Assembly (NCBI GenBank): GCA_044892525.1
Contig: CM097887.1
Span: 89,754,397 to 89,818,396 of the forward strand
Reading direction: 5' to 3'
Origin: Schmidtea polychroa
Lineage: Eukaryota
Length of the DNA stretch: 64,000 nucleotides
Shown here in pieces: positions 26,301 to 30,561 of this stretch. Below the pieces are notes generated by a model, which had not been told where the DNA came from, searched no databases, and saw only the letters and a program-made list of their open reading frames with translations. The stretch's first letter is position 1, and every line of letters starts with the position of its first letter. A program made the position numbers and the translations under genes.

Positions 26301-28997
26301 CTCCCAAAAAATTTTTTTATGAAGGTCAACTCAAAAATTTTTGATTTTTTACGATTGTTGGGCTGAGTCGAAAATTTAATCGTTGAAAAATAAGAAAGTA
26401 GGAAAGTAGAACATTAAGGAAAATAAAAATAAAATAAAGGAAATCAGAGATAAAATAGAATAAGATATAAGGAAAATAATAATTAAGACATGAGAATTAA
26501 AACAAAAAATAAAATTAAGAAAAGATTAAAATAGAACAACAAGTTGACAAATAAATAAGGAGGAATTCAAGAAATAATAAGGAAATTAAGGAAATAAATA
26601 GAAAAACATATTAAAAATAAAGAAAATAAGGAAAAACAACCTAAAAACAAGAAAATTATATTAAATTAATAGAAATAAGCGGTACTCAACTCTGATTGGT
26701 CCGCACAAATAAGAATTTGCTATATATACAACCACCAAAATCATTAAATTTACTGTTAACCCCGAGCATTTTATAGGTAAGTGAGAATGTTTACTGTTAC
26801 TGTTAACCCCGAGCATTTTATAGAAAAGACATCCATAACTTACGGAGACACATTCAAGAATCAGAGACACTAACCGAGCAACAGTTCATTCAGAGAATTC
26901 ATAGCTACTTACAATCAATTCGAAGCTAAGAGATTTGTCACAGCAATCGATATTCCATCAACAAACTCATTCAGAGCGACCAACATTAATTTTCGATCCA
27001 GCCTAATTCGACAGTAAGGGATTTTATTTCATTTTGTTTATTTAATTTCGAAGTTAACAGTATTATGTATCTTTAATGAATAATTAAAAATTTTGAAAAA
27101 TAACATTGACTCTCTTTTCATTTGATCCCAATTAATGATTTCGATAAAGTAAATAATTTAAAAGTCTAAAAGTAGTTATTAGTAATAAATGAGCGATTGC
27201 ACAATCTTTATGATTACTGTTATGAAATACCTTTTTATGATTTTTAAAGTAACGAGTAACGTGGAGTTGAGGAACCGCAGATCATGGTGTGAGGTGCCTT
27301 CGGGAGCTCAGCCGGTGGATCTGAGGTTCTTCAATCACGCAGCTAGATTGGGTCGAAATGTGAAGGCTTCTTCACGGGTCCAATCGCTGAAGGATTGACT
27401 CAAAATTAGACAGAATGAGGAAAAACGATTTAGATTAGTGACATGAATTTAGAACGAATACCGAAATGTACAGTGATTGAGGTGGACGCTACATCTACAA
27501 CGATCTTATGTCTTCGATTTCCATCCTGAGGAACCATGTGATCCTGAGACTAACTCTTTGCTAACATCGTCGTAATCAGTTCAATTTGACTCTAACATTG
27601 TACTCAATTCCACACTTATGTTCGGTTAATTAAAAATCAGGACGAATTCTATATTTCTTCCTTCTCAGTTTAAAATAAATGAAGTTCCAATGTATAAATC
27701 ACCTTTATTAAAATTAAAGTCAAAACATAACCCCTGATAATCATTTTATTTAACTTATACTTACTAGTAAACTAGAAATACCCGTTCAGCAGTTTCCATA
27801 CCGTCACATCAGGAGGTCTATCATGGAAATAATATCCACATAGAGTAGGGAATTGAATTGTAGAACTTTTTCATCAAGTAATATCTAGAATTGAGGAAAA
27901 TCTCCAAACACAGTAAATAATTCCAAAAAATCCAAGTGAGAGAATTGTCATGAAAATTGAACGGTTGAGAATTTGTCCATATGATGTGCGAGTGCAGATA
28001 AATTTTCCATTGAGTAGGCACACTAGCATGATTATGGGTAGCAACACCAGCGTCAGAATTACCTGAGAAATGCACACGAGGATAGATGATAATCACGCAG
28101 CGTGTGCAGGGCTAATCATAGTAGTCCATGTTCCATATGTCGTATTTAATGTAGATTCTAGCATACGACTGATAACGATTAATCGTCATAGTAGCTCCAT
28201 GAATAGCAGATGATGGCTCTAGTAGATTTTGTGTTGAAATGCGATCAATGAAAGATAACTACATACAGTAACATTTCACAAACCACTCATCTGGAAAATT
28301 TTCGAATGAATTAAATTTAACTGATAATAGAATGACTAAATGGATAATTATAGACAATTATAATTTGAATTAAATAATTTAAAAGATAACCGAATGACCA
28401 AGTGCGTAATTGTAGACCAGTATGAGTTAAACTAAATAATTTAAACGGTAACGGGCATTGTTAAATTAAGTGGGGATAATTGGGACCGGCTAACTAATGG
28501 TGGAAAATTAAAGCCAAGCGTTAATCATAGAGCCGGAAATTGTCAATTCGAGGGTTACGAGTGATCTAACGAACAACTAATAGTAATTTTGAATAATAAG
28601 TAATTTAATTCGAGTTCGCGAATAATAATATTTTGAATGACCATGGTAAACATTTTAAATGATAATTAAGAGTGTTTTGAAAAGCTACTCAAATGTACCA
28701 TTTAATAATCAGATATGTTTATAGACCAACAATCATAGGGCGATTTAGTAATTAATAAACCTTCTCAATTTCTAAGTTAAAGATTTATTTGCATTCGTCC
28801 ATGCTACCCCTTTAATGAACTATTCGTTAAATAAAAGCGATGTTACAAATCATCTAGAAGGGAAATTCATTCCCCTACTTATTCCAAATGGCCGCTAACT
28901 GCTGACAGTGACTAACCAACCTCATTCGACCTGCGCTCTTATGCATATAAAAGATTTACTAAGTCATTATAGTTCCTTATTTTACAGTTGATCAATT

Positions 28998-29747
28998 ATG
29001 CTACCCACTACGAAATCCACCTTACGTCCGTGCTTCTCTTGCGCGGATAAAAACGCAATTATAAAGGATCTTCAGGCCCAGATCGGGCGCTACAAAAAGA
29101 AGATAGATGAGCTGGAGGGCACTTGGTTTACCCCCGCTCAGATGAAGGAGACTCAAAAGAAGCTCCATCGTAGTGAGCATTGTCGGGACGCGCTCATCTC
29201 TGAAAGCCGTGCCCAGAGAAGCCTTATTAAAGAACAGTCAGAGGCGCTGCACAAAGTCTACGTGCAGGCAGCTACCACACAAAAAATCGTACAGATTCCC
29301 ATCAAAGAGGCCGATAACATCTTCCCGCCTCATCATAACCCCTCATCGAATCCATCTCCACCGCTCAAGAGACCATGTCGAGACTGCGTGGAAACCGAAC
29401 TGTCGCCTATGCGACCGGACGTTGTCATCACAGGTACTAGTAAGACCTCAACTACTAGTACCTCTGTATCCGCTGCGTTTCAGCAAGTCGCATCTACAAG
29501 CAAACCCAAGCGCAAACAATTATCTCGTGCGGAACGTAAGAAGAGACAGCGTGAGCGCGCATCCACAAAGCCAAACATCCCATCGACAGAAAACTCAACC
29601 AGTGGTAGTAGTTCGCGCGTGTCCATCGACTTGACAGTAGGACCCCCAGTGCGCATCATCTCAGCAGCTGGCGTGACATGGGAGGAAAACGCCTCCGAAT
29701 TCTTCAATCTAGACGAGTTACTCGCCGACACCGAATGGGGAAAATAA
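28998..29747 (+). CDS. Unknown element-encoded protein (CxxC/HC coiled-coil domain, basic patch, acidic C-terminus), copy A
   Basis: 249-aa ORF; about 55 of 83 N-terminal residues identical to copy B by manual alignment; TTTTACAG acceptor upstream and AATAAA at 29875. Confidence 0.8.
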   Translation: MLPTTKSTLRPCFSCADKNAIIKDLQAQIGRYKKKIDELEGTWFTPAQMKETQKKLHRSEHCRDALISESRAQRSLIKEQSEALHKVYVQAATTQKIVQIPIKEADNIFPPHHNPSSNPSPPLKRPCRDCVETELSPMRPDVVITGTSKTSTTSTSVSAAFQQVASTSKPKRKQLSRAERKKRQRERASTKPNIPSTENSTSGSSSRVSIDLTVGPPVRIISAAGVTWEENASEFFNLDELLADTEWGK

Positions 29748-29949
29748 GAGAACCCCAGCGGGATTCCTGAAGCCTGTTGAGAAGTCGAACTACATTTGTT
29801 GTGATGTTTTTCTTTTCCTTCGACAACCATTCGTGATGTGTACAGTTGAATCCCTGTGACTAAATGTTGAAATTAATAAATTTTGTTGTTTTATATATTT
29901 TCGTTTACGAATAGCCAGACTTTGATTGAATAGGTTAATTAAAGCGTCT

Positions 29950-30190
29950 TCGAGAGCTAAGGAATAATCCCCGATCTGTTTTCGCGAAATTCTGACAAGC
30001 GGTGGTGTAATGAGATGGACGTAAGCCCTTCTATCGGCAGTCGTGAATGGGAAGTCGAGGCCTCAGCAAGGAGTAGTTTTAAGGCAGAAGCTCACCTGCT
30101 TGCTGGCGTCTCGCCTGCATAGTGCATTACCAACGTGAAGTAATTCACGGGCACTATGTTGGAGGAAAGTTATGTGGGGCTTCACTCCAG
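29950..30190 (+). ncRNA. Conserved structured RNA module at the 3' end of element A
   Basis: Conserved islands and compensatory stems shared with 40950-41220 (minus). Confidence 0.55.
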
Positions 30191-30561
30191 GTTGACCAGG
30201 CAGTAGCACATTTTATTCGAGATGGACAATCAACCCTTAGACCAGCCAATATTGTGGAGTAGTCAGCCGAGGTGTGACCCCAACACGATTTTCAATGGGT
30301 TTCAGGGTTTTTTCTCAAAATCTTTTAGAGTTTTTATGTACGTCAACTTAGGAAATTTTTTAAAAATAAGTAGGTCAACTCAAAAAAAATTTGTTCACCA
30401 TTGACTCGGACAATTTTAAACTAATTCGTTTATAGATTTAGCGGTTCTTTTTCATTGAAGATTTACGTGATAAAACCTCGCTTCTCAATCACTTTGGTGC
30501 CGATTCAGTTTTCAGCGAAATAAATTCCATTTCAATGACTCTTCATTCTCCAATAAATGCT

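Follow-up and report, generated by a model that had tools for sequence, protein, structure and literature searches.

We analysed a stretch of 64,000 nucleotides from Schmidtea polychroa (GenBank assembly GCA_044892525.1, contig CM097887.1, positions 89,754,397 to 89,818,396 of the forward strand; hereafter the window), in which two elements of about 4 kb with TG...CA ends each carry a single open reading frame (ORF) (Table 1). Copy 1 is bounded by the target-site duplication (TSD) CGAT at 26352-26355 and 30286-30289, and copy 2 is flanked on both sides by TAAC (GTTA on the plus strand). Because the right arm of the inverted-repeat element that received copy 1 holds an uninterrupted version of the insertion site, both ends of copy 1 could be fixed independently. 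As the original prediction had stated, both copies are complete in ends, coordinates and 4-bp TSDs, and they share a layout of an A-rich 5' tract (56-60% A in the initial 300 nt of the two copies), a two-unit AG|GT repeat, twin hairpins and a single ORF. Their assignment to one family was not upheld: at the DNA level, the two could be aligned solely in the A-rich tract and the 5' portion of the ORF, and judging from their sequences they represent different lineages with barely alignable long terminal repeats (LTRs).

Both elements are almost certainly solo LTRs that belong to Burro-type giant Ty3/gypsy retroelements of two related lineages. Each probably remained after the paired LTRs of a 30-kb insertion had recombined, and each carries a gene whose protein is likely to regulate the RNA of the element. 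That the pieces might be solo LTRs with a gene, derived from a giant retroelement, had been among the explanations first offered, and it was borne out by relatives of both copies that occur as paired LTRs around gag-env-pol with a primer-binding site (PBS).

Paired relatives and their internal region

Genome searches were run with each copy, and 40 candidates were scored of 2747 for copy 1 and of 2381 for copy 2. Both ends were present in 36 of the 60 fetched loci, comprising 29 solo-type copies and 7 LTRs adjoining internal sequence of longer elements. An exact 4-bp TSD flanked 26 of the 29 solo-type copies, two others being ambiguous within a microsatellite and one having a mismatch, so that the predicted termini and TSDs recur in other copies. 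Immediately behind one solo LTR (L002), 446 bp of its 3' end were repeated in inverted orientation.

Related repeats flanked internal regions of 18-24 kb, giving totals of 25-30 kb, and at least 15 same-strand pairs of LTR ORFs spaced 25.5-26.5 kb apart were present among 150 hits. Five of the longer elements, which are mutually related, were examined in place in the assembly. Their LTR pairs were 99.5% (with a truncated 5' LTR), 98.6%, 99.8%, 99.6% and 99.97% identical, the last with one mismatch in 3854 nt, and a single 4-bp TSD lay outside the LTR pair in four of the five (ATAA, GGAG, GAAT and ATAC). Three complete pairs spanned 29.9, 30.3 and 30.3 kb, and one element with deletions spanned 24.9 kb. 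Over its full length, copy 1 shares 94.8% identity with a 3' LTR behind an internal region (L007), and copy 2 is 85.6% identical to another 3' LTR (L047) and 78% identical to the LTRs of a 30.3-kb element. Between lineages, the internal regions were 79-82% alike in DNA and 86-96% alike in the compared pol-containing protein stretches.

In a young copy (L113-L116), 4732 codons are open in one frame, which is fragmented in the other four elements. The encoded polyprotein has the order Gag, CCHC knuckles, a weak Bcl-2 match (E 0.026, below cut-off), a mononegavirus-type fusion protein, protease, reverse transcriptase, RNase H, integrase and ankyrin repeats. Pfam searches of two elements matched Retrotrans_gag, zf-CCHC, Monjiviricetes_fusion, RVP, RVT_1, RT_RNaseH, Integrase_H2C2, rve and Ank; the in-frame Env between gag and protease was identified by Monjiviricetes_fusion (PF24664, E 3.6e-70), and the cargo domains scored E 2e-27 (MATH), 3e-11 (RING) and 3e-20 (Ank). 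In the young copy, a RING ORF lies ahead of the polyprotein, and a TRAF/MATH ORF and three unnamed ORFs lie behind it.

Three further observations concern this region. Ahead of the first ATG of the polyprotein (L113:8937-9281 and equivalents), its frame has no stop over about 110 codons; this stretch seems conserved across lineages and suggests that the start is spliced or differs from AUG. A GC-rich, possibly structured stretch and a 73-bp tandem array lie between the RING ORF and gag (L113:7060-7980). In one element, env is interrupted by a 3-kb insertion (L032:6042-9215), whose 776-codon minus-strand ORF had no Pfam match and is possibly a transposase.

The PBS comprises 18 nt complementary to the 3' end of the host tRNA-Pro(TGG) in all five elements, and 585 exact LTR-PBS junctions were found genome-wide. 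The 3' part of this tRNA itself had 2164 exact genome-wide matches, and a tandem array of tRNA-Pro(TGG) genes, the element's primer, was found with a period of 475 bp (L077, G000:C1 near 130.9 Mb). The longer elements thus combine the features of Ty3/gypsy elements, namely a direct LTR pair, the order protease, reverse transcriptase, RNase H and integrase, TG...CA ends with a 4-bp TSD, and a tRNA PBS. The integrase of an LTR element produces the TG...CA junctions and the target duplication, and when the two LTRs recombine, a single LTR stays behind, still flanked by the duplications of the first insertion. By this route, tRNA-Pro would prime reverse transcription of the 30-kb element, its integrase would insert the DNA and duplicate 4 bp of the target, and LTR-LTR recombination would yield the solo copies.

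The original prediction had also considered a non-autonomous DNA element (Ginger-like) or a gene-bearing satellite that is mobilised in trans. Such an element would suit the TG...CA ends, their 7-bp inverted repeat, the 4-bp TSDs and the many stand-alone copies. It is refuted, and in our view highly improbable, given the direct LTR pairs that are nearly identical, enclose a PBS and gag-env-pol and have one TSD outside the pair, and given the 585 LTR-PBS junctions. Likewise, the two copies cannot be called an undescribed family without transposition enzymes, as the paired relatives carry gag-env-pol and their parent type, Burro/GYPSM1, is already known from the described planarian elements (PMC6431247).

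Several results weigh against the assignment to Burro-type solo LTRs. The nearest paired LTRs were only 79-96% (copy 1) and 78-86% (copy 2) identical, and the neighbours of the window's exact subfamilies were mostly solo. The spacer from the LTR to the PBS is 7 nt instead of about 2 nt. No BIR domain was matched at E <= 0.1 in the Pfam search of the two elements, and MATH was in a separate downstream ORF, whereas the description of Burro1 puts it inside ORF1. A canonical polypurine tract was absent before the 3' LTR in all five elements (L113-L116 and four others), where the final 18 nt held 9-10 purines, with no more than 4 in a row. In its place, all five had a conserved 7-bp hairpin and a mixed tract that ends in GAGTGATT, and TGATT stands after the 5' LTR as well as in this tract. 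Since young copies show ongoing replication, we read the absent polypurine tract as a sign of an atypical plus-strand primer and not as exclusion from LTR elements; it raises the question of how the plus strand is primed. A pairing of the LTR ends with the D-arm of the tRNA, visible by eye in lineage 1 alone, was dropped.

The window also contains remains of older insertions. Two decayed copies had been proposed at 31951 and 39242, and both hold an ORF homologous to the LTR ORF (tblastn, E 1e-30 and 2e-5, respectively), but a complete pair of ends was established for neither. The LTR of the relic at 31951 probably started at TGTTGGG at 25985 and was later split by the inverted-repeat element holding copy 1. 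An NKAP-like host ORF (32963-33742, minus strand; Nkap_C, E 4e-43) adjoins this older relic. A Polinton/Maverick-like element at 2859-21229 with 324-bp inverted ends encodes a protein-primed polymerase, a packaging ATPase, a PLA2-integrase fusion and a double-jelly-roll capsid protein, and has a hAT transposase ORF inside it (18053-19993); it is irrelevant as a helper for the 4-kb elements. A Tc5/pogo-like DNA-binding ORF (45163-45666) and a hAT-like transposase (52305-54317) were also observed.

Table 1. Features of the two LTR copies and their surroundings in the window
Feature	Position	Strand	Remarks
Copy 1, almost certainly a solo LTR (lineage 1)	26356..30285	+	3930 bp; ends TGTTGGG...CCCAACA
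Copy 2, almost certainly a solo LTR (lineage 2)	40901..44964	-	4064 bp; ends TGTTGGG...ACCAACA
Short inverted-repeat element, like a miniature inverted-repeat transposable element (MITE)	26272..31273	.	copy 1 inserted in left arm
A-rich 5' tract, copy 1	26356..26660	+	60% A over first 300 nt
Inverted CCAAT box and TATA-like box, copy 1	26692..26729	+	predicted promoter of the LTR gene
Two-unit tandem repeat, copy 1	26749..26823	+	encloses predicted 47-nt GT-AG mini-intron 26777-26823
CCAAT box, TATA-like box, two-unit repeat and mini-intron, copy 2	44347..44466	-	predicted 46-nt mini-intron
Predicted second intron, copy 1	27014..28987	+	GTAAGG ... TTTTACAG; would end 10 nt before ATG
Twin hairpins, copy 1	27259..27389	+	folding compared with shuffles
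Twin hairpins, copy 2	43632..43760	-	folding compared with shuffles
LTR-encoded ORF, copy 1	28998..29747	+	249 aa; N-terminal domain helical and predicted to dimerise; Arg/Lys-rich motif 168-185; acidic-hydrophobic tail
LTR-encoded ORF, copy 2	41443..42201	-	252 aa; acceptor AG immediately before ATG
AATAAA followed by GU/U-rich tract, copy 1	29875..29880	+	predicted poly(A) signal, 146 nt before 3' module
Structured 3' module, copy 1	30021..30175	+	conserved; begins with donor-like GTAAG; two bulged stem-loops
Structured 3' module, copy 2	40990..41145	-	
Decayed LTR-ORF relic, older lineage	31951..32539	+	frameshifts, deletion; tblastn
Second LTR-ORF relic, more decayed	39242..39468	+	stops, frameshift; tblastn

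The gene within the LTR

The proteins of copy 1 and copy 2 were 36% identical overall and 58% identical over the N-terminal 108 aa. A search with the N-terminal 107 residues gave hits for all 150 candidates scored of 6633, and the match was stop-free in 144, a biased proportion as these were the best-scoring ones. Among 11 natural ORFs, the pairwise ratio of nonsynonymous to synonymous substitution rates (dN/dS) was 0.03-0.17 in the N-terminal half and 0.08-0.40 in the C-terminal half, as calculated within lineages since synonymous sites were saturated between them. By these ratios, the gene is under strong purifying selection in its N-terminal half, and the low dN/dS indicates that the protein was selected during replication of the element. 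In another locus (L119:750-2997), two nested old LTR relics both had the ORF and the 3' module, which indicates that the layout is ancient.

AlphaFold2 predicted two long helices (residues 13-40 and 46-94), a short basic helix and disorder elsewhere, with a mean predicted local distance difference test (pLDDT) score of 57.5 and values of 82-95 for residues 21-90. A homodimer model of residues 1-120 scored 0.62, compared with 0.01 for the best control, and at least 78% of the contacts agreed between runs with a partner pLDDT of at least 76. In calibration, 21 of 30 solved pairs reached the mark for a dimer, but none of 23 single chains did; by group, it was reached by 17 of 29 pairs and 0 of 30 single chains from eukaryotes, and by 7 of 16 from animals. 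The model lends support to a putative dimerisation of the LTR protein through a predicted coiled coil. In both lineages, 10 of the 18 residues of the arginine-rich motif are lysine or arginine.

A word-based protein search gave no hits for the LTR protein among 625 candidates, and its matches in the Atlas were all below 0.9. When 1.84 billion representatives were searched with a profile, 14 remote homologs emerged (E 2e-11 to 7e-4), in all of which the helical core is kept and in most of which there is a strongly arginine-rich motif of the RRRPNRNRRRRERRR type. One of them had a sub-threshold match to Pfam REV (E 0.0013). In 11 of the 14, an unrelated Pfam domain also scored above cut-off, and these look like chimeric gene models. 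A zinc site formed by CxxC and HC residues was considered and dropped, as the cysteines are absent in the remote homologs, and an origin of the LTR ORF by capture of a host gene was unsupported, the ORF having no host family.

LTR expression signals and a possible role of the protein

Each LTR would double as a complete small transcription unit. All five LTRs inspected contain an inverted CCAAT box, a TATA-like box and a two-unit repeat around a GT-AG stretch; CTGATTGG was found in all five and exact TATATA in four of them. An acceptor lies 0-10 nt ahead of the ATG of the LTR gene, and a second donor follows the mini-intron. The units of the two-unit repeats (26749-26823 and 44347-44418) are alike within each LTR and different between lineages, a pattern of concerted evolution; where the two units meet, the sequence takes the AG|GT form that recursive splice sites have. 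Of 57 LTRs, 29 were non-redundant, and in 24 of these a poly(A)-like hexamer was located 135-170 nt ahead of the 3' module, a count for which eight hexamer variants were accepted in AT-rich DNA. We infer from these signals that the LTR gene is transcribed from a CCAAT/TATA promoter of its own, loses two introns by splicing and ends at a poly(A) signal. Contigs of uncertain kind from public runs had no GT-AG joint where the introns are predicted, a result that counts neither for nor against splicing. By a strict rule applied to the five elements, a splice acceptor stood before 21 of 27 accessory-ORF starts, a count that omits the start of the final internal ORF of three elements, as compared with 20 of 3227 other ATGs; this contrast is weakened in that the rule was post hoc, coding DNA forms part of the background and the elements are related to one another.

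The twin hairpins were more stable than expected (z -4.3 and -4.5, with none of 200 shuffles equally stable), and in a related LTR the letters of the stems were changed while the pairing and the apical part were retained. For the structured 3' module, which had been part of the proposed layout, the evidence was divided: its folding energy was not significant (z -0.9 and -1.5, with 34 and 13 of 200 shuffles as stable), but covariation supported it, as both-side changes were seen in 18 of the 33 proposed pairs across 25 aligned modules, a level reached by none of 500 shuffles in a test that leaves the relatedness of the modules uncontrolled. The first stem-loop was 94-100% paired and the second 64-66%, the latter probably owing to misalignment between lineages, and a CCUU/AAGG pseudoknot candidate was 97% paired with no both-side changes. 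The core of the module had 1439 exact genome matches (control 0), with the LTR ORF upstream in 29 of the first 30 loci. An Rfam search of window positions 25900-45100 gave no match in the modules and a single hit, at E 0.18, on a TAA microsatellite; resemblances of the module to twister, pistol, hairpin and hatchet ribozymes had no Rfam support and were set aside.

Two arrangements of these signals were weighed. The one we somewhat favour places the LTR gene in U3, a short R behind AATAAA and the structured module in U5. Mouse mammary tumour virus (MMTV) and Rous sarcoma virus provide a precedent for a short R behind the poly(A) signal in a layout with a gene in U3. In the other, which we consider possible at lower probability, one promoter near LTR position 390 would drive all transcription and an R of about 3.1 kb would hold the whole gene, with the choice between early poly(A) addition and read-through, and so between LTR mRNA and genome RNA, set by the donor-bearing module. 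It accords with the sole clear CCAAT/TATA pair at LTR positions 337-370, with the lack of an evident TATA box ahead of the 3' AATAAA and with the donor-like GTAAG at a fixed distance of about 146 nt past the poly(A) signal, but it would require a 3.5-kb strong-stop DNA and a means to distinguish two identical LTRs.

Since the examined copies retain the predicted LTR introns and acceptors are abundant ahead of the accessory starts, the unspliced RNA would need an export route. The predicted coiled coil and the arginine-rich motif, encoded next to conserved stem-loops, make a Rev/Rex/CERV-like role our best single guess: the LTR protein may be a dimer that binds an LTR stem-loop via the arginine-rich motif, a reading that we hold tentatively and to which we give less than an even chance. 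CERV is a precedent for the use of an export-type protein by a gypsy-type element (PMC10309623). Four results speak against this role. The LTR protein matched no Pfam family above cut-off; a Foldseek search of the PDB gave only generic helical hairpins (best E 0.67, none at E <= 0.001); a clear export signal was not found in the protein; and its basic-plus-acidic layout suits a transcription activator equally.

We ranked the Rev/Rex/CERV-like role above that of a transactivator, followed by that of an anti-silencing or host-directed factor. As a transcriptional transactivator (Tat/Tas/Tax-like), the protein of the same element would be a coiled-coil dimer and use a basic region that binds DNA or a trans-activation response (TAR) element and an acidic activation tail to boost the LTR promoter. 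The predicted parallel dimer with 10 of 18 basic residues in one stretch, the acidic-aromatic C-terminal tail present in both lineages and the long hairpins about 500 nt past the predicted start would all fit, but the basic motif is about 80 residues off the coiled coil, unlike in basic leucine zipper (bZIP) proteins, the motif is more arginine-rich and Rev-like in the remote homologs, and the twin hairpins fall within a predicted intron; we consider this function doubtful. It is rather unlikely that the protein counters host silencing by PIWI and PIWI-interacting RNAs or modulates host pathways. Such a function would match the host-modulating cargo of the element (RING, TRAF and Bcl-2-like), the survival of the LTR gene in every solo copy and the targeting of LTR elements including Burro by planarian PIWI (PMC8532177), but the protein has no similarity to known suppressors or host proteins, and its strongly conserved N-terminal half speaks against an arms race.

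Returning to the Rev-like reading, Burro-type elements could be pictured as complex and retrovirus-like, with a Rev/Rex-style switch in the LTR, a self-contained spliced gene for a dimeric, arginine-rich RNA-binding protein that would recognise a conserved RNA structure of the LTR and so export an unspliced 26-kb RNA, six or more spliced accessory mRNAs and a non-polypurine plus-strand primer, although as a whole this picture is speculative and unlikely to be right in every part. It would offer a testable protein-RNA pair for how a 26-kb acceptor-rich RNA escapes splicing and leaves the nucleus. As every solo LTR keeps the whole gene, the genome would, if this is true, have well over a thousand potential trans-acting expression units. 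The solo LTRs are here intact gene units and not empty promoters, which matters for the annotation of planarian genes: most of the remote homologs in the protein library are parts of proteins with further matches to unrelated host domains, apparently chimeric models. A link of Burro1 to the survival of stem cells and to regeneration is cited in PMC13465017.

Comparison with known systems

Burro/GYPSM1 elements (Jurka 2007; Grohme et al. 2018) are giant gypsy-like LTR retrotransposons of planarians, described as about 30 kb in total with an internal region of up to 25 kb and an ORF1 of about 4900-5100 aa (PMC6431247). The elements studied here resemble them in their length of about 30 kb and in their single long frame (4732 open codons, compared with 4873 aa in Burro1), as well as in the CCHC Gag, the Bcl-2-like segment, the in-frame mononegavirus-like Env between gag and pol, the order of protease, reverse transcriptase, RNase H and integrase, the ankyrin repeats and the MATH/TRAF and RING cargo (PMC6431247). 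MATH/TRAF is in a separate downstream ORF here, inside ORF1 in Burro1 and upstream in the D. tigrina element, and BIR, which belongs to the description of Burro1, had no match here (PMC6431247); because of this difference in MATH position and the undetected BIR, we call the elements Burro-type and not Burro1. The available part of the Burro account (PMC6431247) is silent on an LTR gene, structured LTR RNA and a missing polypurine tract. Our literature search found no account of a Burro LTR gene or RNA structure, but the original Burro papers and Repbase were outside that search and prior annotation is quite possible.

Cer1 of C. elegans, likewise of the gypsy type, carries CERV, an accessory gene with a spliced transcript, whose product has a helical zipper, a KRKK signal and a predicted multimeric state and is needed for export of unspliced RNA (PMC10309623). 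CERV differs in being 517 aa long, in having exons in common with gag and in lying outside the LTR (PMC10309623). No library match links the LTR protein to CERV, and no direct homology test was made. The likeness to Rev, Rex, Rem and Rec consists of coiled-coil oligomerisation helices, an arginine-rich motif and a structured RNA in the same genome (PMC5568270). Here, this likeness is one of predicted features, with only the sub-threshold REV match of one remote homolog. Genes within or overlapping U3 are represented by MMTV sag, HIV nef and foamy-virus bet, and MMTV has its poly(A) signal in U3 and a short R; the LTRs of these retroviruses of vertebrates measure about 0.6-1.8 kb, whereas here a whole gene, together with its predicted promoter and two predicted introns, lies inside a 4-kb gypsy LTR. 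The Ogre/Tat elements of plants, with LTRs of 1.9-6.5 kb, are similar to the present elements in LTR length and in having extra ORFs, but their extra ORFs are internal (PMC6431247).

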